DNA of 37,438 bases from UHGV virus genome UHGV-0041833, one strand, 5' to 3'. A program made the translations under genes and the position numbers. Source of the stretch: a virus. Shown here piece by piece: positions 4,497-14,908 of this stretch; position 1 is the first letter of the stretch; each line of letters starts with the position of its first letter. The notes under the pieces are model-generated. The model was not told the DNA's origin, ran no database searches, and was given only the letters and a program-made list of their open reading frames with translations.

Positions 4497-5021
4497 TTAC
4501 GACTCAGTTAACTCTTTAAAGCGTTCCATAAACATCCCATAGGTATGGCCTGGCGACAGTGGAATAACTTTGAACATCTCTGTTGCCGGGATACCTTCCA
4601 GTACGGGCCAGAAAGAGCCATCATCAAGCCCGAGATCGCGGCGTTCGGTTGCCAGCATGATGAGATCGGCATATTTCACGGGCGTACTCATAACCGGGGG
4701 TAACCCGTATTTCTCACGGATTACGGCGTCTATTTTTTCTTCCATCCGTTTATAGTCAGGAAGAAGGCGTTTCAGTGGCGCCGGGATGTCCTGGCAATAC
4801 GCTTCTGTTGCATCATGCATTAACGCTTCAAAAGCAAATTCCTGCGGTACCAGTTGGCTGCAAAGCACCGCATGTTGGGCGACGCTGTAGAAATGTGAAA
4901 GATGTCCTGCAAAGCGACAGATATTTGAAAGAGAAACCGCGATATCGTTAATAACGATGTCGTCTTTATTTATCCTGTCATAATAAAAATGCTTCCCGGA
5001 AAAAGTTTTAATAAATGACAT
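4497..5021 (-). CDS. HD-domain phosphohydrolase (YfbR/YfdR-like 5'-deoxynucleotidase family)
   Basis: 174 aa from ATG 5021 (GGAG SD; the track ORF begins at an upstream GTG 5048); H...HD metal-binding signature (GHLSHFYSVAQH ... LMHDATEAY). Confidence 0.7.
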   Translation of the reverse strand: MSFIKTFSGKHFYYDRINKDDIVINDIAVSLSNICRFAGHLSHFYSVAQHAVLCSQLVPQEFAFEALMHDATEAYCQDIPAPLKRLLPDYKRMEEKIDAVIREKYGLPPVMSTPVKYADLIMLATERRDLGLDDGSFWPVLEGIPATEMFKVIPLSPGHTYGMFMERFKELTES

Positions 5022-5114
5022 TTTGTTCTCCACGTATATGCGCTGCACCGCGCTGAATTCTGGTAAAAGAAAGCCCTCACCATCCGGCGATTATTGAGTC
5101 AATTACGTTTCCAT

Positions 5115-5148: not shown

Positions 5149-5973
5149 TCAGGCGGTAAAAGTACCAATAAAGGTTTCTACTTTGCTGTCCTTGAATTTC
5201 TCAACAAGCAGATCACGAAATTCGTTAGCCATTTCTTCCTGCACTGCTTCCAGCTGAATAATGCGCAGAACCAGTACAGGACGATCGCCAGTGATAATGC
5301 TGAGGCGTAATTTAAACGGACGTTCTTTCAGGCCTTCAAACGGAACGCATTTAAATTCAAATGCCACTGGCATAATATCTTTGGTCTTCGCTTCGACAGA
5401 CTCCATCAGGGAGCGTTTGCCGCTGAAGTCATTGTCTTCAAAATCAGCGGTCTGGTTTGCTTCAATCGTGATTTTACGGACTGCCGCAGCCGCTTTTGTT
5501 GCCTGAATGGCATCACCATTAGCATCAAAGCCCACAAGGTAGTCGGCCCAGTCTTCAATCCATTCTGCCAGTGACTTCTGGGAGTTACGCTCGCCGTTAA
5601 CAGACAACAGAGCAGAGAACGGTGCTGTCTTTTTCAGTTTGAGAGTGGCGGTGTTATCTGCGTGACCAGGCTCATCAATAGTACCCAGGTTAAGCACACT
5701 GACGGCACGCATATTATCGGCATCGATAAAGCAGCGGGTGCCTTCATCCGCAAGATCTTTAGAATAACGGGTAAAGTCATCGATGCTGGCAGTGGAAAGC
5801 GCACCACGGAAACGGAAGCGATTTAAATTAAATTTTTCCAGATCATGAATGCGGAAATTTTCAGGTAATGCCACTGCGTCGGCACCAATCTTACTGATAA
5901 TTTCATTAACACCCTGAGCAGAAATAAGGGCATGGATTTGATTAATTGCGGTTGCGTCTAAGTTCTGAGACAT
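5149..5973 (-). CDS. DUF2303 (YfdQ-like) phage early protein
   Basis: 274 aa; ATG with GAGGA SD; position and length match the YfdQ-type gene of CPS-53-like prophages. Confidence 0.6.
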
Positions 5974-6038: not shown

Positions 6039-6401
6039 TTAATGACCTGCTGCGCGGAGTTTTCCGTCAGGTTCACCGGCAAGAGTCAGTAATTGTCCCT
6101 GGTCTTCCTGCAGAATAGTCAGGCGACCACCGCGATTGACATACATCGGCGTTTCGGTGGTGTCTTCTTCGGAAATTTTCCCGCGGTTAGTCGGACGAAC
6201 ATATGAGAGTTTGTGTTTTATTTTCACACGGTTCTCATCAAACGGTTCGATTTCCAGGTTGAGCGAGACCTTACCTTTGGTTTTCGTGTTCATCACACCG
6301 GAAGCGACTTCACTGAGAACTGCGCCGATTTTGGTTTCAAATACGCCGCCGTCCAGCTCCCCGATAAATTCCTGCACGTTGGTACTGCGTTCGCTAGCCA
6401 T
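6039..6401 (-). CDS. Hypothetical early protein (YfdP-like), first gene of the early-left operon
   Basis: 120 aa from ATG 6401 with AGGAG SD 7 nt upstream; the longer in-frame reading to 6719 is low-complexity and GC-rich and lacks an SD. Confidence 0.55.
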   Translation of the reverse strand: MASERSTNVQEFIGELDGGVFETKIGAVLSEVASGVMNTKTKGKVSLNLEIEPFDENRVKIKHKLSYVRPTNRGKISEEDTTETPMYVNRGGRLTILQEDQGQLLTLAGEPDGKLRAAGH

Positions 6402-6869
6402 TTTGCTGCTCCTCATCATATCGACCCTGCAAGGTCGGTTGGTTTCTCCACAAAACAGAGAAGAACACCTGCGGTGGCAGCCGCCCGGGTGGATTGGGTT
6501 ATGAGCCCGTCGTCCGGTGATGCTCTTCTCTGTTTTGTAAAAAGAGCGGTACCAGCCGGAAGCAAGGGTACAAGCTGGTACCGCCAGGACTACACACAGC
6601 ATAAAGTTGTGGTGCCGGGTGCCTCCCGGTGCCTGGCGAAGGTTGCACACCAGGCGGGTGGGTATCCACAGAAGGTCGACTGTCAGCCTCAACCTTAACC
6701 CGCGTGCGCTGAGCCGCATTCACCACAACGCTAAGGATTCTCTCTGGTTGAAAATACTTAGCTGTTATGTGCCTGCTTTTAGCCACATCAGGCGAGGTGG
6801 GCCTGGTTATTCCCCAACAACAAGGATTCGGCTAATCTGGATGACTCTGTTCTTAGAGGGGATAATTAA
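6402..6869. other. GC-rich, hairpin-dense non-coding region (candidate early-left promoter/leader or structured RNA)
   Basis: About 470 bp with no convincing ORF on either strand, multiple stable stem-loops, and operator-like half-site GGTACAAG identical to the OR1 right half. Confidence 0.3.
6546..6584. repeat. 11-bp perfect inverted repeat gcggtaccagc / gctggtaccgc with 17-nt spacer
   Basis: Direct reading; the spacer contains GGTACAAG; each arm contains palindromic GGTACC. Confidence 0.6.
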
Positions 6870-7382
6870 ATGGGAGCGATTTATGTTAAACGTTTGATTC
6901 TGTCGGTAGCACTGATAATACCGATAGCATCCAATGCTTCTGATGCTTTGAACCAGCCGAGCAGTAGTCTAAATGATGGTGTTGAGACTTTTTTTATTTC
7001 CTGCTTTGATATGCCTCAGGAAACAACTACTGATATGGACGCTTGTCAGAGAGTTCAGTTAGCTCAGGTTAGTTGGGTTAAGAATAAGTATTCGGTGGCC
7101 GCCCTGAATCGTTTGAAACAAGACAACAAGGATGATCCACAGCGTCTGCAGGAATTAACTGCTTCTTTTAACGCGGAAAGTGAAGCTTGGACAGAATTAA
7201 TTGAGAAAGCGTCAAAGTCCGTCCAGGTTGATTATGCAGGAGGAACTATAGCTGGCACTGCAGTTGCATCACGTCAAATTGGTCTTCTGGAATTACAATC
7301 CCACGATATCTGGGAGCACTGGCTACGATTCGAGGACTCAACTCCTCCTCTTTTGCCAGAACCAAAGTTCAAATCTGAGTAA
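6870..7382 (+). CDS. Secreted periplasmic protein with cleavable signal peptide (possibly DUF1311/LprI-like); moron
   Basis: 170 aa; GAGGGG SD; N-terminal signal peptide MGAIYVKRLILSVALIIPIASNA; own terminator downstream; opposite orientation to neighbouring early genes. Confidence 0.6.
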   Translation: MGAIYVKRLILSVALIIPIASNASDALNQPSSSLNDGVETFFISCFDMPQETTTDMDACQRVQLAQVSWVKNKYSVAALNRLKQDNKDDPQRLQELTASFNAESEAWTELIEKASKSVQVDYAGGTIAGTAVASRQIGLLELQSHDIWEHWLRFEDSTPPLLPEPKFKSE

Positions 7383-7408
7383 TAAGTCATCCAGATTGTT
7401 AAAGAGCG

Positions 7409-7432
7409 AAGCGTCCTATAGGGCGCTTTTTT
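7409..7432 (+). terminator. Rho-independent terminator after the secreted-protein gene
   Basis: 8-bp stem (aagcgtcc/gggcgctt) with tata loop followed by TTTTTT. Confidence 0.6.
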
Positions 7433-7549
7433 GTTGCTAACGAATCATCCTGGACTTCATATGCCCCAGGCGGCTACTTCGTGGGCGTCCTGCCTGTTTG
7501 TTGTTTCTCTTGGGTACATTATGTATCTCAAAGGTATATTATCAAGTAT

Positions 7550-7572
7550 AAAAAAACCTGCCGAAGCAGGTT
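7550..7572 (-). terminator. Rho-independent terminator downstream of cI (minus strand)
   Basis: cctgc cgaa gcagg hairpin preceded on the plus strand by A7, giving a U-tract on the minus-strand transcript. Confidence 0.55.
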
Positions 7573-7584
7573 CATAAACATTGA

Positions 7585-8259
7585 TTAGGCTTTGATTTTG
7601 TATCTTCTTGGTTTTCCTGAGAAAATCACAGTACCAATTATAGAGCAATTACCGTTGATCTTAATGTAAGGCTCAGGCCAGTTTGGGTTTAACGCTTTGA
7701 GATAACGCTGTGTCCCATCTTCTATCAACCTTTTGAAGGTGGTTTCACCTGTATCGTGCATCAATGCAATAACGTCGTCACCGTGGCAGGCAGGTACTTC
7801 AGGATCGACAAAAATCATGTCTCCCGGGCGGTACTCATCAATCATTGAATCACCTATCACCCGCAAGATATAAGTCATTTCCCCACAGGGTACAGGGCAG
7901 GGATACGTTTCTGCTGTGCTCAAATCAACCTCAGAATATCCAACTTCTTTCCATGCTCCGGCCTGTACCCATGATATGACAGGGACTAATGTGATTTGTT
8001 TATTAGTGATTGAAACATCAGGTTTTTTTGTGATGTTCGTTGTCTGGTGTTCTTGATCGAGCCATCCGACAGGCAGGTCGAAACATTTTTCGATGTGTCG
8101 TGCCATGCTGTCACCGATATTTTTAGTAGCACCATCTCCCATAAACCTGCTGGTCTGGGTTGGCTCGCGATCAATCATAGTGGCAAAGGAAGAATTCCCG
8201 CCAACACCATCTCTCAGTTTTCTGGCGTTAGACCGCCGGATGTCATGGATTGTTTTCAT
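7585..8259 (-). CDS. cI: CI-type repressor (N-terminal HTH, C-terminal S24 LexA-like autopeptidase domain)
   Basis: 224 aa; Ala-Gly cleavage-site-like WVQAGAW, Ser nucleophile motif GDSM, downstream Lys; divergent from cro across operator region. Confidence 0.85.
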   Translation of the reverse strand: MKTIHDIRRSNARKLRDGVGGNSSFATMIDREPTQTSRFMGDGATKNIGDSMARHIEKCFDLPVGWLDQEHQTTNITKKPDVSITNKQITLVPVISWVQAGAWKEVGYSEVDLSTAETYPCPVPCGEMTYILRVIGDSMIDEYRPGDMIFVDPEVPACHGDDVIALMHDTGETTFKRLIEDGTQRYLKALNPNWPEPYIKINGNCSIIGTVIFSGKPRRYKIKA

Positions 8260-8274
8260 AACGAAATTAAAACC

Positions 8275-8345
8275 CTTGTACCGTTAAGGTACAAGTATCT
8301 TGAAGGTTCATTTCAATCATGTAATATGTACACCGGAGGTACACA
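8275..8345. promoter_or_regulatory. Right operator region: two 17-bp palindromic operators (TGTAC-N7-GTACA) flanking a rightward promoter (-35 TTGAAG 8300..8305, -10 TAATAT 8322..8327)
   Basis: OR1 cttgtaccgttaaggtacaag (8275..8295), OR2 atgtacaccggaggtacacat (8325..8345); promoter hexamers with 16-bp spacer; cro SD GGAGG at 8335..8339. Confidence 0.6.
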
Positions 8346-8581: not shown

Positions 8582-9145
8582 ATGAGGCTAATCGTGGGTA
8601 AGCATCACTGGAAAATAGAAAAACAGCCTGAGTGGTACGTGAAAGCTGTCAGAAAAACGATCGCGGCGTTGCCGGGTGGTTACGCTGAAGCGGCTGACTG
8701 GCTCGATGTAACAGAAAACGCTTTATTCAACCGCCTTCGTGCAGATGGCGATCAGATTTTCCCGCTGGGATGGGCAATGGTTTTACAGCGTGCTGGTGGC
8801 ACTCACTTCATTGCTGATGCTGTGGCGCAGTCTGCAAATGGCGTCTTTGTGTCTCTTCCTGACGTCGAGGATGTGGACAACGCCGATATCAACCAACGCC
8901 TGCTGGAGGTCATTGAACAGATCGGCAGTTATTCAAAACAGATTCGTTCAGCAATTGAAGACGGTGTAGTGGAACCGCATGAGAAGACAGCAATTAACGA
9001 TGAGCTGTACCTCTCAATTTCGAAGCTGCAGGAGCATGCAGCACTGGTCTACAAAATCTTTTGCGTTTCAGAAAGTAGTGACGCCCGCGAGTGTGCAGCT
9101 CCGGGCGCCGTGGCGTGTCGTGACTGTGGAGAAACTAACGCATGA
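8582..9145 (+). CDS. CII-like regulatory protein (phage 186 CII / CP76-YdaT-type)
   Basis: 187-aa ORF directly after cro; composition and layout resemble 186-type CII proteins; C-terminal extent uncertain because of overlapping frames. Confidence 0.45.
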
Positions 9146-9480
9146 ACAGTTTAACAACACACTACCGTCGCTCGCAACTGATTGCGCTTCCTGTACCGGG
9201 TGGAAAAGCGAAGGTGGAGTATTGCTATGCAGTAAATGTACCAGGTGACAGGGAAATTGTAACCCACAGCTTTGCTGAGTGGGCTGTGGGTGATTTCAAC
9301 CGGCAGAAGGAGACAGTCCTTTGCGACAAGTTAACCGCTGGTTCAAAGATCACTACGGAGTGCCCGTCAGAGTCATTCGTTGGGAACCGGAAACACAACG
9401 GGTTATCTACCTCCGCGAAGGCTATGAGCATGAATGCTTCAGTCCGCTCGAACAGTTTCGTCGTAAATTCAGGGAAATAG
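9142..9480 (+). CDS. Hypothetical protein (frame uncertain; possibly the N-terminal part of a gene continuing in another frame)
   Basis: ATG overlaps previous stop (ATGA); the first 55 residues look protein-like, the remainder is Ser/Asn-rich and low-complexity. Confidence 0.3.
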
Positions 9481-9500
9481 AGGTCGGTCATGAGCACTAA
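9321..9500 (+). CDS. Hypothetical small protein (TTG start) translationally coupled to the replication gene
   Basis: 59 codons, AGGAG SD 9 nt upstream of TTG; stop overlaps the ATG of the next gene (ATGAGCACTAA); protein-like composition ([19 protein letters not shown]...). Confidence 0.35.
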
Positions 9501-10475
9501 ATTAACCGGCTATGTATGGGATGGTTGCGCTGCGTCAGGCATGAAGTTATCCAGCGTGGCAATTATGGCCCGCCTGGCTGATTTCAGTAATGACGAAGGT
9601 GTGTGCTGGCCATCAATTGAAACCATTGCCCGCCAGATTGGCGCGGGGATGAGTACCGTCAGAACGGCTATCGCACGGCTGGAAGCAGAAGGCTGGTTAA
9701 CGCGTAAGGCGCGTCGCCAGGGTAACCGCAATGCGTCGAATGTTTATCAGCTTAACGTTGCGAAGCTTCAGGCAGCGGCATTTTCTCAACTGTCAGATTC
9801 TGACCCGTCAAAATCTGACGCATCAAAATCTGCCCCGTCAAAATTTGATGCGTCGAAATCTGGCAAAAAAGCGGGTTTTCACCCGTCAGAATCTGGCGGG
9901 GATCCGTCAGTAAAATCAAAACATGATCCGTCAGATAAAAAAACTTCTCGTCCNNNNNNNNNNNNNNNNNNNNNNNNNNNNNNNNNNNNNCTCGTCCGGA
10001 CGCTTCGCAACCGGACACGCAGACGGCTGAACAGGAGTTTTTAACTCGCCATCCTGATGCTGTTGTATTCAGCCCTAAAAAGCGCCAGTGGGGAACGCAG
10101 GATGATTTGACCTGCGCACAGTGGCTCTGGAAAAAAATCATCGCCCTGTACGAGCAGGCTGCCGAATGTGACGGCGAGGTGGTTCGTCCCAAAGAACCGA
10201 ACTGGACAGCCTGGGCAAACGAAATTCGCCTGATGTGTGTGCAGGATGGTCGTACTCACAAACAAATCTGCGAGATGTACAGCCGCGTCAGCCGCGATCC
10301 GTTCTGGTGCCGTAACGTGCTCAGCCCGTCGAAGCTGCGGGAAAAATGGGATGAGCTTTCCCTGCGCTTATCGCCGTCCGTAAGTACGTACACCGAAAAA
10401 CGCGAGGACCCGTACTTCAAAGCCAGTTACGACAACGTGGACTACAGCCAGATCCCGGCAGGATTCAGGGGGTGA
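9490..10475 (+). CDS. Replication initiator (N-terminal HTH, internal origin iterons, DnaT-like C-terminal domain); interrupted by an N-run
   Basis: N-terminal winged-helix region; iteron-encoded repeat peptide DPSKSDASKSAPSKFDASKS; C-terminus ends YSQIPAGFRG like primosomal protein DnaT; both halves come into one frame if the N-run plus the 7-nt flanking duplicate are collapsed. Confidence 0.7.
9791..9946. repeat. Origin-like iteron array inside the replication gene, followed by an A-rich tract
   Basis: At least 6 direct repeats of about 15 bp with core CGTCA(A/G)AATCTG, then gataaaaaaac. Confidence 0.6.
9954..9990. other. Assembly gap (37 N) flanked by duplicated ctcgtcc
   Basis: N-run; identical 7-mer on both sides; collapsing restores the reading frame. 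Confidence 0.8.
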
Positions 10476-10477
10476 TC

Positions 10478-10966
10478 ATGAGTCTGTTAAATGACGTTCA
10501 GAAATTCATTGAAGCCCATCCGGGGTGTACTTCCGGTGACATTGCGGATGCTTTTGCAGGTTACTCACGACAGCGCGTTCTGCAGTCAGCAAGCAAGTTA
10601 CGTCAGAGTGGGCGTGTGGCTCACCGTTGTGAAGGAGATACACGCAGACATTTCCCGCGCCTGACTGAGAGAGCGCAGGAACCGGAACCACAACCAGTTC
10701 GAGAAACCAGACCTGTGCGCAATTTCTATGTCGGCACTAACGATCCACGGGTGATTTTGTGCCTGACCCGCCAGGCTGAAGAACTGGAGTCCAGGGGTTT
10801 ATACCGTCGTGCTGCAACCGTGTGGATGGCGGCATTCCGTGAAAGCCACTCCCAGCCAGAACGAAACAATTTTCTGGCGCGTCGTGAGCGGTGCTTACGG
10901 AAAAGCAGCAAGCGCGCTGCATCGGGTGAAGAGTGGTATCTGTCAGGGAATTACGTGGGGGCTTAA
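10478..10966 (+). CDS. Protein with PerC-like C-terminal motif and winged-helix-like N-terminus
   Basis: 162 aa from ATG 10478 (AGGGGG SD); LESRGLYRRAATVWM matches the PerC-family signature LE.RGLWRRAA..W. Confidence 0.45.
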   Translation: MSLLNDVQKFIEAHPGCTSGDIADAFAGYSRQRVLQSASKLRQSGRVAHRCEGDTRRHFPRLTERAQEPEPQPVRETRPVRNFYVGTNDPRVILCLTRQAEELESRGLYRRAATVWMAAFRESHSQPERNNFLARRERCLRKSSKRAASGEEWYLSGNYVGA

Positions 10967-11619
10967 TGAGTAATAAATATTGCCAGGCGCTGGTGGAGCT
11001 GCGGAACAAACCAGCCCATGAACTGAAGGAAGTGGGCGATCAGTGGCGCACGCCGGACAACATTTTCTGGGGAATTAACACCCTGTTTGGCCCGTTTGTT
11101 CTGGATCTGTTCACCGACGGTGGTAACGCCAAATGTGCCGCGTATTACACGGCGGAAGACAATGCGCTGGCGCATGACTGGTCAGAACGTCTTGCGGAGC
11201 TTAAAGGTGCTGCCTTTGGTAATCCCCCATACAGCCGCGCCAGTCAGCATGAGGGGCAATACATCACCGGCATGCGTTACATCATGAAGCATGCCAGTGC
11301 CATGCGTGATAAAGGCGGGCGCTATGTTTTCCTGATCAAAGCTGCCACCAGCGAAGTGTGGTGGCCGGAAGATGCAGATCATATTGCTTTTATTCGCGGG
11401 CGTATTGGTTTTGAACTGCCTGTCTGGTTTATCCCGAAAGACGAGAAGCAGGTGCCGACAGGAGCTTTCTTCGCTGGTGCTATTGCTGTTTTTGACAAGA
11501 CCTGGAAGGGACCGGCAATCAGCTACATCGGGCGCGATGAACTTGAGGCATGTGGTGAGGCGTTTCTGGCGCAGGTTCGCCAGCAGGCGGAAAAACTGCT
11601 CAGGGAGATGGCGGCATGA
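10966..11619 (+). CDS. Phage DNA N6-adenine methyltransferase (Dam-like)
   Basis: 218 aa from ATG 10966 (TAATG overlap with previous stop); catalytic NPPY motif (FGNPPYS). Confidence 0.8.
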   Translation: MSNKYCQALVELRNKPAHELKEVGDQWRTPDNIFWGINTLFGPFVLDLFTDGGNAKCAAYYTAEDNALAHDWSERLAELKGAAFGNPPYSRASQHEGQYITGMRYIMKHASAMRDKGGRYVFLIKAATSEVWWPEDADHIAFIRGRIGFELPVWFIPKDEKQVPTGAFFAGAIAVFDKTWKGPAISYIGRDELEACGEAFLAQVRQQAEKLLREMAA

Positions 11620-11942
11620 CGACGTTAACTCAATGCCAGCAGCAGGTGCTGGATATGCTGATTTCTTATCAGAAAGAACGTGGCTTCCCGCCAACCAATC
11701 AGGAGGTGGCAACCATGCTGGGATACCGTTCAGTGAATGCAGCGGTGGAGCATCTTCGAGCACTGGAGAAAAAAGGCGTCATCACGATAAAGCGTGGCGT
11801 GGCCCGGGGTATCACTCTTCATACCGCGGTGAAGGACGACGACAGCGAGGCGGTCGGGATTATCCGCTCACTGCTTGCCGGTAAGGAAAACGCCAGGCTG
11901 CGTGCAGCCCACTGGTTACATGAGAGGGGCCTGAAAGTATGA
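11616..11942 (+). CDS. LexA-like N-terminal DNA-binding-domain protein lacking the peptidase domain
   Basis: 108 aa; alignable by eye to the LexA N-terminus (LT.RQQ.V.D.I......G.PPT..E.A..LG.RS.NAA.EHL.AL..KGVI.I..G..RGI.L); no Ser/Lys autopeptidase domain. Confidence 0.65.
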   Translation: MTTLTQCQQQVLDMLISYQKERGFPPTNQEVATMLGYRSVNAAVEHLRALEKKGVITIKRGVARGITLHTAVKDDDSEAVGIIRSLLAGKENARLRAAHWLHERGLKV

Positions 11943-12328
11943 AGCTGATTCTGCCGTTTCCGCCCAGCGTGAACACGTACTGGCGACACCCCAACAAAGG
12001 GGCGTTTGCTGGTAAGAGCCTGATAAGCGCGGCGGGGCGCAAATTCCAGAGCGCGGCGTGTGCAGCAATAGTTGAGCAGTTACGTCGTCTGCCAAAACCA
12101 ACGTCGGCACCTGCTTCAGTGGAGATCGTGTTGTTTCCTCCGGATAACCGGATCCGCGATCTGGACAACTATAACAAGGCGCTGTTTGACGCCCTGACCC
12201 ACGCGGGTGTGTGGGAAGACGACAGTCAGGTGAAAAGAATGCTGGTGGAGTGGGGACCGGTTATCCCGGAAGGGAAGGTCGAGATCACTATCAGTAAGTA
12301 CGAGAAAACGGCGGGTGCAGCTGCCTGA
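11939..12328 (+). CDS. rusA: RusA Holliday-junction resolvase
   Basis: 129 aa; conserved RusA features (PPS.N.YWRH, RDLDNY.KA.FDALT..GVW.DD.QV); ATGA overlap with upstream gene. Confidence 0.85.
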   Translation: MKLILPFPPSVNTYWRHPNKGAFAGKSLISAAGRKFQSAACAAIVEQLRRLPKPTSAPASVEIVLFPPDNRIRDLDNYNKALFDALTHAGVWEDDSQVKRMLVEWGPVIPEGKVEITISKYEKTAGAAA

Positions 12329-12347
12329 TTAAGAGGAGAAACGAAGT

Positions 12348-13145
12348 ATGAATAATCTGATGGTTATTGATGGTATTGAAGTTCGTCGTGATGCTTATGG
12401 GCGTTACAGCCTGAACGATCTGCACAGGGCTGCCGGTTCTCTGGATAAGCATAAGCCTGCATTCTGGCTCCGCAATGAGCAAACTGAACGTTTAATAAGC
12501 GAGTTGCAGATTTGCAACTCGGTCAATATAGAGCCAGTTAACGTTATTCGTGGCGGAAATAACCAGGGGACGTATGTCTGCAAAGAACTGGTGTATGCCT
12601 ATGCAATGTGGATAAGCCCGTCATTCCATCTGAAGGTGATCCGTACTTTCGATATGGTAACCAGCACACCGGAAAAATTATCCGGGCAGGCTGCTGACAA
12701 GATGCAGGCTGGCGTGATCCTGCTGGACTTTATGCGCCGGGAATTAAACCTGTCTAACTCATCAGTGCTTGGAGCCTGTCAGAAGCTTCAGGAGGCTGTT
12801 GGCTTACCGAATCTGGCACCGCGCTATGCCATTGATGCTCCTGCTGACGCGCCTGATGGCTCAAGTCGCCCGACACTGTCGCTGAGTGCACTGCTGAAAC
12901 AGTATGGTATCCGCCTTACGGCTAATCAGGCATATCACCAGATGGCGAAGCTGGGGATCGTCGAACAGCGCGAACGATACAGCCGTACAGCGATTAACAA
13001 CATCAAAAAATTCTGGTCGCTGACGGCGAAAGGCTGCATGTTCGGCAAGAACATCACCAGTCCTGCAAATCCGCGCGAGACGCAGCCGCATTTCTTCGAA
13101 TCCCGATTCCCTGAGCTGTTAAAGCTGCTCGATACCGTTCATTGA
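12348..13145 (+). CDS. KilA-N domain protein (antirepressor-like)
   Basis: 265 aa; AAGAGGAG SD; N-terminal KilA-N signature (IDGIEVRRDAYGRYSLNDL ... AFWLRNEQTERLISEL). Confidence 0.6.
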   Translation: MNNLMVIDGIEVRRDAYGRYSLNDLHRAAGSLDKHKPAFWLRNEQTERLISELQICNSVNIEPVNVIRGGNNQGTYVCKELVYAYAMWISPSFHLKVIRTFDMVTSTPEKLSGQAADKMQAGVILLDFMRRELNLSNSSVLGACQKLQEAVGLPNLAPRYAIDAPADAPDGSSRPTLSLSALLKQYGIRLTANQAYHQMAKLGIVEQRERYSRTAINNIKKFWSLTAKGCMFGKNITSPANPRETQPHFFESRFPELLKLLDTVH

Positions 13146-13146
13146 G

Positions 13147-14142
13147 GTGACCGTGAGAGCACTACTGACCCCTGAAATTGCCCCGCGTATGGGGATCGTA
13201 TTGTTCAGGCCCGGTTCAGAGCTGATGCCCCTGTTTATGCAGGGGCGTGTCCTGCTGGAGCCTGAGCCGGAACGTTATTCATCTTTTGCCAGTGGTGCCG
13301 TTCCGGCGGCATCACAACCGCTGGCGGATGATCCTGCCATTCGGGCCGTGTTCCGCAATGAGGCAGTTATTCGTCGTGCGGGGGGTGTGGAATGTCTTGA
13401 AAGCTGGTTACTTCGTGAAAAGGGCTGTCAGTGGCCTCATTCCGGATGGCACAGCGAGAACATGACCACAATGCGACACGCGCCGGGCGCAATCCGTCTG
13501 TGCTGGCACTGCGATAACCTGCTTCGCGATCAGTTCACGGAACGGCTGGAATCAATGGCAACGGATAACTGTGCCCGCTGGGTGTTGTCTGTTGTGCGTC
13601 GGGATCTCGGTTTTGATGACAGTCACGTTGTGACAATGCCGGAACTGTGCTGGTGGCTGGTTCGTAATGATCTGGCGGATGCCTTACCGGAAAGTGCAGC
13701 CCGTAAGGCACTGAGATTACCGAAGCCTGTTGTGCCGTCTGTCACCCGGGAAAGTGACCTTGTGCCTTCGGTTCCTGCCACCAGCATCATCCAGGATAAG
13801 GCGAAAAAGGTGCTGGCGCTGAAAGTGGATCCGGAGTCGCCGGAGTCTTTTATGTTACGCCCAAAATGTCGCCGCTGGGTTAATGAAAAGTACACGCGCT
13901 GGGTTAAGACACAGTCGTGTGCATGTTGTGGAAAGCCCGCTGATGATCCCCACCACCTGATAGGCCACGGACAGGGTGGAATGGGTACAAAAGCGCATGA
14001 CCTTTTTGTGTTGCCTTTGTGCAGAAAGCATCACGACGAGCTGCATGCGGATACCGTGGCATTTGAAGAGATGTATGGCTCCCAGCTGGAGCTGATATTT
14101 CGTTTTATCGATCGTGCGCTGGCAATTGGCGTACTGGTGTAA
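13147..14142 (+). CDS. nin-region protein with C-terminal Cys/His zinc-binding HNH-like motif (DUF968-like)
   Basis: 331-aa ORF (GTG start uncertain; alternative ATG 13189); C-terminal CACCG...HHLIGHG...H...C.KHHDELH. Confidence 0.45.
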   Translation: MTVRALLTPEIAPRMGIVLFRPGSELMPLFMQGRVLLEPEPERYSSFASGAVPAASQPLADDPAIRAVFRNEAVIRRAGGVECLESWLLREKGCQWPHSGWHSENMTTMRHAPGAIRLCWHCDNLLRDQFTERLESMATDNCARWVLSVVRRDLGFDDSHVVTMPELCWWLVRNDLADALPESAARKALRLPKPVVPSVTRESDLVPSVPATSIIQDKAKKVLALKVDPESPESFMLRPKCRRWVNEKYTRWVKTQSCACCGKPADDPHHLIGHGQGGMGTKAHDLFVLPLCRKHHDELHADTVAFEEMYGSQLELIFRFIDRALAIGVLV

Positions 14143-14155
14143 GTGGAGAACGAGC

Positions 14156-14908
14156 ATGAACCTTGAAGCCTTACCGAAATATTACTCCCCAAAATCTCCA
14201 AAATTGAGCGATGACGCATCGGCGACAGGCTCGGGTGGTTTAACAATTACGGATGTAATGGCTGCGCAGGGGATGGTGCAGTCGAAAGCACCGCTTGGGT
14301 TTGCCTTATTCCTGGCAAAAGTTGGTGTTCAGGATCCTCAGTTTGCGATTGAAGGCCTGCTCAATTACGCGATGGCACTGGATAACCCGACATTGAACAA
14401 ATTGAGTGAAGAAACCCGGTTACAGATCATCCCTTACCTTGTGAATTTTGCCTTTGCTGATTATTCCAGGTCTGCGGCAAGTAAGGCTCGCTGTGAGCAT
14501 TGTACTGGTACTGGATTTCATAATGTATTGCGCGAAGTGGTGAAACATTCCAGAAGCGGGGAATCCGTTATCAAAGAAGAGTGGGTGAAGGAACTGTGTC
14601 AGCATTGTCATGGCAAGGGAGAAGTCAGCACGGCGTGCAGAGGGTGTAAGGGTAAAGGTATTGTCCTGGATGAAAAAAGAACCCGGCTTCATGGCACGCC
14701 TGTTTATAAGACTTGTGGGCGTTGCAATGGAAACCGGTTTAGCCGTTTACCGACTACACTGGCACGACGTCATGTCCAGAAGCTGGTTCCAGACCTGACT
14801 GATTATCAGTGGTACAAAGGATATGCAGACGTAATTGATAAACTAGTAACAAAGTGCTGGCAGGAAGAAGCATATGCTGAAACACAATTGAGAAAGGTGA
14901 CGAGATAA
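14156..14908 (+). CDS. Late-gene antiterminator Q (zinc-finger type)
   Basis: 250 aa from ATG 14156 (GGAG SD); several CxxC/CxxG zinc-binding pairs; last gene before the late promoter/terminator and lysis genes. Confidence 0.7.
   Translation: MNLEALPKYYSPKSPKLSDDASATGSGGLTITDVMAAQGMVQSKAPLGFALFLAKVGVQDPQFAIEGLLNYAMALDNPTLNKLSEETRLQIIPYLVNFAFADYSRSAASKARCEHCTGTGFHNVLREVVKHSRSGESVIKEEWVKELCQHCHGKGEVSTACRGCKGKGIVLDEKRTRLHGTPVYKTCGRCNGNRFSRLPTTLARRHVQKLVPDLTDYQWYKGYADVIDKLVTKCWQEEAYAETQLRKVTR

Follow-up and report, generated by a model that had tools for sequence, protein, structure and literature searches.

The non-coding stretch at positions 6402-6869 of virus genome UHGV-0041833, a lambdoid prophage of the SfV/SfIV/ST64B/mEp460 type (37,438 nucleotides (nt) in full, here called the window), is the untranslated minus-strand leader of the early-left operon yfdP-yfdQ-yfdR and onward. 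It is composed of a small RNA (sRNA) unit, a transcription terminator and a folded 5' untranslated region (UTR), all on the minus strand and each carrying compensatory changes (Table 1). In our view the region probably makes a terminated sRNA of the STnc100/sRNA-17 type in addition to a cis-acting leader of the early-left operon. The window RNA represents sRNA-17 by a local allele and is divergently related to STnc100 and PasD. Structures, conservation, covariation and synteny come from the present analysis, while the RNA ends and the silence of the downstream genes were taken from the literature on a sister allele; from these we infer that transcripts terminate at the window allele, where they come from, that the RNA has trans targets and what the 5' UTR fold does. 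A preliminary description, made from the letters of the window, had offered a structured non-coding RNA and a long structured leader among its possibilities. Both readings hold, the former as the STnc100/sRNA-17-type RNA at 6729-6540 and the latter as the leader of yfdP-yfdQ-yfdR.

The structured RNA core and its relatives

As described before, the region is more GC-rich than the flanking genes (GC 0.545-0.57 over 6400-6800, versus 0.385-0.485 in the left and 0.41-0.45 in the right flank) and dense in stem-loops. The minus strand folds at -186.6 kcal/mol, compared to -151.5 +/- 6.1 kcal/mol for dinucleotide shuffles (z = -5.79; none of 100 shuffles was as good), and the plus strand has a z of -2.93. 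The perfect 11-nt inverted repeat reported earlier (6546-6556/6574-6584, spacer 17 nt) is indeed present, together with a perfect 9-nt repeat (6606-6614/6721-6729) and a 25-nt repeat of 84% (6450-6474/6514-6538). Open reading frames (ORFs) of 95-161 amino acids (aa) overlap the region, and on the identical sequence of E. coli ATCC 11775 PGAP calls a 'frameshifted hypothetical protein', a pseudogene at 6416-6726 and its only call there. That the region encodes a protein, be it this one or the 95-aa, 96-aa or 106-aa ORF, is nevertheless hardly credible: none of the four ORFs overlapping it belongs to a Pfam family, homologues vary by single-base indels and replacement of whole domains, the substitutions are compensatory base pairs, and yfdP has a Shine-Dalgarno (SD) sequence of its own, GAGGAG, placed 8 nt ahead of its start codon at 6401. 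This agrees with the earlier judgement that the region holds no convincing ORF. The lack of an arginine-rich N-like ORF was likewise borne out, none being seen between the candidate leftward promoter (pL) and yfdP or among the ORFs profiled at 9142-14908, as judged from reading the ORF list, with no dedicated search.

The 124-nt core of the sRNA unit (6729-6606) was matched over the full length of the Rfam model RF02076, STnc100 (model 1-206), with 45.4 bits (E = 2.9e-8 in E-value mode), below the gathering score of 47 bits; a scan of the window at gathering thresholds gave no match. The Rfam covariance search that had been proposed as a check of the region thus yielded the family, at a sub-threshold score. 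The same model scores 39.5 bits in SfV and 35.1 bits in ST64B, and canonical copies in viral contigs reach 68-132 bits. A covariance model built here from 39 representative cores, R1, with the window in its seed and ST64B outside it, scores 80.5 bits in the window and 76.4 bits in ST64B, and its search returned 134 copies in 100 sources. Among 94 distinct homologues, in an alignment fitted to R1 itself, 95.3% of cells were paired, versus 82% after shuffling and 44-49% with partners slid; 15 of the 26 pairs were changed on both sides, and 351 cells had such double changes. The fold shared with STnc100 (closing helix, H1, H3 and H4) has thus been kept through compensatory changes, which the preliminary description had suggested looking for in a comparative alignment.

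The evidence differs between the elements of this fold. In the closing helix P1 4 of the 7 modelled pairs co-vary, and in H3 (helices 3 and 4) all 8 pairs are changed on both sides in the family. Hairpin H1 of the window (GCGGC...GCACGCG) is a fully compensated form of the hairpin that canonical STnc100 members have as CCCCC...GGGG: by RNAalifold and pair counts, pairs 13-29, 16-27 and 17-25 are G-C in the window and C-G in canonical members. The H4 stem is invariant across the family, a constancy partly due to the design of the search, and since it never varies it provides no covariation evidence either way. It lies within a 22-mer, CACCGGGAGGCACCCGGCACCA, which is found exactly at 6631-6610, once in the window, and exactly in more than 120 IMG/VR viral contigs; with the conserved GGUGAAU, also found in the core, both core sequences of STnc100 are present. 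A tRNA-like stacking of H4 on P1 (at least 12 stacked base pairs (bp), as in acceptor plus T arm) was considered and rejected: the alleles lack a conserved 3' CCA, and the window has no tRNA according to ARAGORN.

The core contains a pseudoknot, joining the strand that follows H1 to the H3 loop, that is missing from the Rfam consensus structure of STnc100; none is mentioned in the available parts of the 2026 PasD preprint (bioRxiv 10.64898/2026.05.13.724894). Across the family cognate duplexes have a mean energy of -10.85 kcal/mol versus -7.16 kcal/mol for non-cognate ones, and none of 5000 permutations reached the observed mean, although tests of the permutation type are inflated by kinship. 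At least 23 distinct pairing sequences were found. The 5' strand has an alternative local partner at 6666-6673; in ST64B this local pairing is weakened and the pseudoknot is retained. Two relatives of the window-type core, L014 (4455-4574) and L052 (1091-1210), have an 11-bp pseudoknot and head a two-gene minus-strand cassette between terminase- and portal-like ORFs, so called by size and order, without profiling. Accessory operons beyond the early-left region can thus be headed by the element as well.

A link to an RNA with mapped ends is provided by sRNA-17, a 193-nt RNA of a mEp460-like prophage in E. coli K1 RS218 that was characterized by 5'/3' rapid amplification of cDNA ends (RACE) and Northern blot (PMC7719688). 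It was placed through the primers and alignment of that study, which match mEp460-type sequence (GTTGTGGTGAATGCGCAGG...GGTACCGCTCTTTT) over exactly 193 nt, a span that opens with the first P1 base and closes in the U tract of the shared terminator, directly upstream of yfdP. Mapped onto our alignment, the published 5' end is the first P1 base and the 3' end falls in the same U tract; the window equivalent is 6729-6540, 190 nt. Both RNAs occupy the same genomic slot, with the pL leader on one side and, on the other, the GGCGGUACC terminator followed by leader and yfdP, and they share the closing helix GUUGUGGUG/CACCACAAC and the position of H1. R1 detects the mEp460 allele with 28.2 bits (E = 3.8e-5). 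The core interior differs, however, and similarity in BLAST is confined to the ends, with the terminator: sRNA-17 has CCGG-N9-CCGG instead of CCGGGAGGCACCCGG, and no equivalent of the pseudoknot and H3 of the window was detectable in it. In 80 yfdP loci terminator and leader are invariant, forming one cluster (>85% similar), and upstream of the terminator three structured alleles alternate, the window type in 29, the sRNA-17 type in 24 and a third type in 27 loci, with a common closing helix and an H1 hairpin at the same place. The third allele (L131 and 26 other loci) has the sequence GUUGUGGUAAUCCGCGAAAUGGCGCGG...CCCCACCACAAC about 125 nt ahead of the terminator; P1, AAU and the H1 position are all that it has in common with the other two, and it gives no Rfam match at gathering thresholds.

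No Rfam relative of sRNA-17 was reported, and alignments shorter than 193 bp were listed as 'degenerative' (PMC7719688). By their sequences, these 'degenerative' alignments appear to include alternative, fully structured alleles sharing only ends and terminator, and the window allele would probably be scored 'degenerative' as well. In RS218 sRNA-17 is visible on Northern blots while yfdP has ~0.5 reads, and the RNA was linked to survival in blood (PMC7719688).

Terminator, folded leader and transcript source

The 11-bp inverted repeat of the preliminary description appears to be an intrinsic terminator. Over 34 clusters of diverged leaders its stem co-varies (U-A 17/C-G 13; C-G 17/U-A 8; A-U 19/G-C 5), occurring in versions with pairing kept (GGCGGUACCAG, GGCGGCAUC, GUCGGCGUC, GGCGGCGCCAG) before a constant U tract, which resembles a boxA in this allele only. 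The sRNA is predicted to end at ~6540. A terminator-like hairpin with U tract follows the core in 79 of 112 family contexts, at a median of 48 nt from core end to U tract. Within the linker between core and terminator, GCUGUGUGUAGUCUU is, by eye in the alignment, seemingly better conserved across diverged leaders than the terminator stem itself. A riboswitch-type logic, in which core strands would compete with the terminator, was also considered and abandoned: family terminators are wholly different and there is no consistent complementarity.

Downstream, the 5' UTR of yfdP is built of the ~25-bp helix, a three-way junction and a pre-SD hairpin. In the same 34 clusters it shows compensatory pairs (C-G 23/A-U 8; G-C 20/C-G 14; A-U 29/G-C 5; A-U 27/G-C 6); overall 82% of cells are paired, versus 40-47% when slid, and 38 of the 76 pairs are changed on both sides. 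The first gene after the leader varies between phages, and the leader is thus a module in its own right. The fold makes it plausible that the ~25-bp helix serves as a processing site, e.g. for RNase III.

From these elements the following course of events is proposed. RNA polymerase would enter from upstream, after induction from pL at ~7518-7545 and in the lysogen by read-through or from a weak local promoter. The 124-nt domain (6729-6606) would be transcribed and fold compactly by its 9-bp closing helix, three hairpins and pseudoknot, and ~20 nt further on most polymerases would halt at the intrinsic terminator (6584-6537). A stable RNA of ~190 nt (6729-6540) would be released, its 5' end, at the first base of the closing helix, arising by initiation or by processing. 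By analogy with its relatives the released RNA would probably be an Hfq-associated trans regulator; such a role is plausible because family members are transcribed in enterohaemorrhagic E. coli (EHEC) (PMC5331693) and the stability of PasD is Hfq-dependent (PMC8550237). The same terminator would silence yfdPQR in the lysogen, and polymerases reading through would yield a yfdP mRNA with a 135-nt folded 5' UTR.

The P1-closed domain might instead be a modular, swappable cis gate set on a conserved terminator, the sRNA being a mere by-product. Such a gate would work as a switch between local hairpin and pseudoknot or by acting on RNA polymerase in the manner of put or of an attenuator, and the three alleles would be specificity variants. 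The core always lies 20-45 nt before the conserved terminator at the head of an operon, no N-like ORF was seen in the window by inspection, the 5' strand of the pseudoknot can pair with either of two partners, in the window as in the unrelated relative U20, and the three alleles share only closing helix and H1. If this were true, STnc100, PasD and sRNA-17 would be the terminated 'off-state' products of one widespread class of phage attenuators or antiterminators. We consider it improbable, however, as R1 has no match in HK022 including putL and putR, canonical members with own promoters do terminate and build up to discrete RNAs of 160-210 nt (PMC8550237), the family terminators, which differ greatly, have no consistent complement in any part of the core, and RS218 makes the sRNA with yfdP silent (PMC7719688).

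For the preferred reading, a terminated sRNA plus a cis-acting leader, the source of the transcript is the next point. The best sigma-70 match of the promoter scan is the candidate pL at 7545-7518 (10/12), which is conserved in SfV and lies about 780-790 nt from the core. In mEp460-type and ST64B loci the core is embedded 280-390 nt into the pL leader, because no gene intervenes between the two, and the published quantitative reverse transcription PCR amplicon of sRNA-17 spans the pL-proximal leader to the core end (PMC7719688). Both the window and SfV have a variable accessory gene inserted on the opposite strand, upstream of a constant flank of ~55 nt or more; 13 upstream classes all run into ...AAAAGCAGGCACATAACAGCTAAGTATTTTCAACCAGAGAGAATCCTTAGCGTT. 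A perfect 13-nt rrn-type boxA, CGCUCUUUAACAA (7396-7408, minus strand), lies between the candidate pL and this gene in the window, ~105 nt downstream of pL and directly after hairpin 7408-7429, which serves the accessory gene as a terminator on the plus strand. Nus factors could be brought to pL transcripts by this boxA, which has no counterpart at that place in SfV.

It is possible, yet rather unlikely, that the unit is an independent sRNA gene that is driven in lysogens by a promoter inside 6730-6890, its link to pL being incidental. At least 20 of the 112 family contexts have a sigma-70 promoter of at least 9/12, with the -10 ending 5 nt before P1 in 17 of the 20, every locus with the window allele has the same ~55 nt ahead of the core, and sRNA-17 was expressed in uninduced cells (PMC7719688). 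Near the core of the window the scan found a single 9/12 site (6889-6862). No hexamer pair is better than this, however, and the -35 candidates beside TATTTT are poor; in ST64B and mEp460-type loci the flanks are GC-rich and of another sequence; and the published amplicon requires a transcript start ~300 nt further upstream. Direct repeats of ~20 nt (TTGTTGTTGGGGA[AT]A[AT]CCAG[AG]T) occur at 6760-6845 and equivalent positions, between the core and the variable accessory genes, and may be binding sites for a regulator.

The preliminary description had also considered a left operator-promoter (pL/OL) within the region, pointing to an operator half-site in the repeat spacer. The half-site is there: GGTACAAG is found at 6567-6574, its only other copies being the two halves of the right operator (OR) palindrome at 8275-8295. 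The larger claim fails. Full operator-like sites were found only at 8276-8294, 8326-8344 and 7501-7519 and none in 6402-6869, even with 3 mismatches allowed; the region has no promoter match either, the best one lying at 7545-7518. One such 8-mer is expected ~0.7 times per window by chance, SfV, with a closely similar pL, has GGTACAAA at the loop position, and mEp460-type phages have GTGTACAAA in the loop together with a different repressor and different palindromes at pL; the loop thus deviates by one or two bases in SfV and mEp460. It is most improbable that the region is pL/OL, and GGTACAAG is a chance half-site in a hairpin loop.

Several points weigh against the terminated sRNA and its silencing terminator. 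Besides the Rfam score below the gathering score, no convincing sigma-70 promoter was found within ~130 nt upstream of the core, and the antisense accessory gene and a possibly bidirectional terminator hairpin lie between the candidate pL and the core. The distance to pL, the antisense gene and the hairpin put the supply of transcript in the lysogen in doubt. The competing local partner of the pseudoknot strand appears in the minimum-free-energy (MFE) fold of the window. The terminator loop is unusually large (17 nt) and the U tract is interrupted (CUCUUUUUAC). No complementary target for the linker was found within the window or phage, and to our knowledge STnc100 has no known trans target. 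Finally, deletion of sRNA-17 caused yfdP to rise (PMC7719688), an ambiguous result because the mutant still had the terminator hairpin and had received a cat cassette.

Organization and spread of the locus

The features of the locus and its surroundings are collected in Table 1.

Table 1 Features of the leader at 6402-6869 and of its surroundings, in window coordinates
Feature	Position	Strand	Remarks
sRNA core, 124 nt	6606-6729	minus	P1, H1, pseudoknot, variable middle, H3, H4; sub-threshold Rfam STnc100
P1 closing helix, 9 bp	6721-6729 with 6606-6614	minus	GUUGUGGUG with CACCACAAC; predicted sRNA 5' end 6729
H1 hairpin	6701-6718	minus	UGCGGC-UCAGC-GC-A-CGCG
Pseudoknot	6690-6696 with 6639-6645	minus	AAGGUUG with CAACCUU in H3 loop; 7-bp match
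H3 hairpin	6631-6655	minus	GCCUGGUG, loop UGCAACCUU, CGCCAGGC; loop forms pseudoknot
H4 hairpin	6615-6629	minus	CCGGG-AGGCA-CCCGG; adjoins P1 3' strand; within 22-mer CACCGGGAGGCACCCGGCACCA
Single-stranded linker	6585-6605	minus	UUUAUGCUGUGUGUAGUCCUG; between core and terminator; candidate base-pairing seed
Intrinsic-terminator-like hairpin and U tract	6537-6584	minus	11-bp stem 6546-6556/6574-6584, 17-nt loop, then UCUUUUUAC at 6545-6537
yfdP 5' UTR	6402-6546	minus	MFE fold; SD GAGGAG 6409-6414; ATG 6401-6399
Long helix, ~25 bp	6516-6546 with 6443-6470	minus	Begins in U tract; 25-nt inverted repeat agrees
Conserved arm	6485-6517	minus	GACGGGCUCAUAACCCAAUCCAYCCGG
Variable hairpin	6471-6484	minus	Enclosed by long helix
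Pre-SD hairpin	6422-6437	minus	Loop contains GCAG
Upstream flank of core	6730-6852	minus	Last ~55 nt constant in all loci with window allele; further up, divergent control region of accessory gene
Candidate pL and operator-like site	7501-7545	minus	TTGATA-16-CATAAT, 10/12, at 7545-7518; directly after cI terminator; outside region
cI terminator	7546-7573		Directly before candidate pL
yfdP	6039-6401	minus	Left of 6402-6869
yfdQ (DUF2303)	5149-5973	minus	Left of 6402-6869
yfdR (HD domain)	4497-5048	minus	Left of 6402-6869
Accessory gene (moron), 170 aa	6870-7382	plus	Weakly LprI-like; between pL-proximal leader and conserved block; context, outside RNA locus
S24 repressor	7585-8259	minus	Right of region; then cro and CII-like gene
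Q-like antitermination protein (phrog_127)	14114-14908		

The 170-aa accessory gene matches Pfam LprI with 17.3 bits, below the cut-off, and is replaced by different genes in other loci. On either side of it stands a 12-bp inverted repeat, GTCATCCAGATT, at 6834-6845 (minus strand) and 7386-7397 (plus strand), which may be a recombination scar or the boundary of an invertible or insertable cassette; ATCCAGATTA also occurs within the conserved block of other loci. Elsewhere in the window, including downstream of Q, no further STnc100-like copy was found, unlike the situation in Stx-type phages. In L003 (5232-5308; ST64B) the Hfq-binding RNA isrK of Rfam was found with 64.3 bits, above gathering, inside sb41 in the flank of the immunity region.

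Region 6402-6869 is 100% identical in several strains, among which E. coli ATCC 11775, NU14, APEC O18 and MS7163. Of 5426 complete E. coli genomes, 2809 have part or more of it, and 1626 have at least 80% of the stretch. Phages with Salmonella, Shigella, Klebsiella or other enterobacteria as their annotated hosts carry the leader module as well. Prophage CPS-53 of E. coli K-12 retains only the last ~25 nt of the leader, without the core, and datasets from K-12 are therefore uninformative.

Genome annotations leave the stretch blank or mistake it for a frameshifted pseudogene. The tightness with which early-left genes are shut off in lysogens probably depends on terminator and leader, and the sRNA may, by analogy with its relatives, affect host physiology.

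Comparison with known RNAs

The preliminary description had further proposed a protein-independent antitermination RNA like put of phage HK022. Like put, the window RNA is a structured RNA in the early leader of a lambdoid phage in which no N ORF was found, upstream of terminators (PMC9378689). The put element, however, is ~70 nt long with two stem-loops and is present in two copies, after pL and after pR (PMC9378689), while the core is 124 nt, pseudoknotted, ~780 nt from pL and single-copy, none lying downstream of cro, and has no similarity to put in sequence or by model. In the HK022 locus R1 had no match at E <= 10, a 19-mer search gave none, and putL and putR are unlike the core by eye; these comparisons do not support membership of the put type, and a put-like function is considered improbable. 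A put-like element in the pL-proximal leader of the window (7505-7432), sharing GAAC-GGC and CAGGAUGA with put, was also rejected: its folds mismatch those of putL and putR, its z-scores are ordinary, and the put residues known to matter lie outside the shared motifs (PMC9378689). Nor does the region resemble a lambda-type nut/N system, with no N-like ORF seen by inspection and a perfect boxA only outside the region.

The 6S RNA of lambda (pR'-tR') and StxS are short stable RNAs whose leader ends at an intrinsic terminator that is passed only by modified polymerase. They belong to a Q-controlled late operon, whereas the element described here is in an early-left leader without an identified antiterminator. 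The lambda late leader (...GUUGUGCUGAAU...CCGGAAGCAGAACCGGAUCACCA...) was considered as a decayed relative and rejected, as the resemblance is at eye level and R1 fails to detect it. At L125 1040-1110 (lambda 44839-44909, tR' to S), CAGUGCUCUUUCCGUUGUGCUGAAU...CCGGAAGCAGAACCGGAUCACCA resembles the upstream flank, P1 strands and H4-like hairpin of L082, L062 and mEp460, and looks as if the interior had been deleted. The prophage sRNAs svsR (co293-like, from the 3' end of cI) and HnrS (66 nt) are different RNAs.

The closest relatives are thus found among STnc100, PasD and sRNA-17, RNAs that were described separately and are tied together here. With STnc100 the window RNA shares the full-length model match, CACCGGGAGGCACCCGGCACCA, GGUGAAU, P1, H1, H3, H4 and the 3' terminator, and it differs in its G-C version of H1. 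Canonical copies often stand in tandem arrays beside phage tRNA genes, some with their own promoter, whereas the window copy is single, placed in an early-left leader and without an evident promoter. Arrays in L012, L020, L028, L059 and L009 consist of 2-4 copies, ~250-480 bp apart, each with its own pseudoknot sequence, and those in L008, L012 and L020 adjoin tRNA genes of the phage in the same orientation. One location reported for canonical copies is 75 nt downstream of the stx2 operon (PMC12370729). In EHEC strain EDL933 11 copies are transcribed, one of them confirmed by Northern blot (PMC5331693). PasD1 and PasD2 of enteropathogenic E. coli are prophage sRNAs which, according to the preprint, have a common ancestor and consensus fold with STnc100 (bioRxiv 10.64898/2026.05.13.724894); PasD2 was found in CsrA complexes (10.64898/2026.08.12.744399). 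PasD, to which the window RNA is likened by description only, lies near Q and lysis genes, in contrast to the early-left position of the window RNA. The locus at 6402-6869 is a real, widespread and well-structured RNA locus and not a new kind of system: prophage sRNAs of this kind were already known, and what is new is the allele, together with a pseudoknot that the Rfam consensus lacks.

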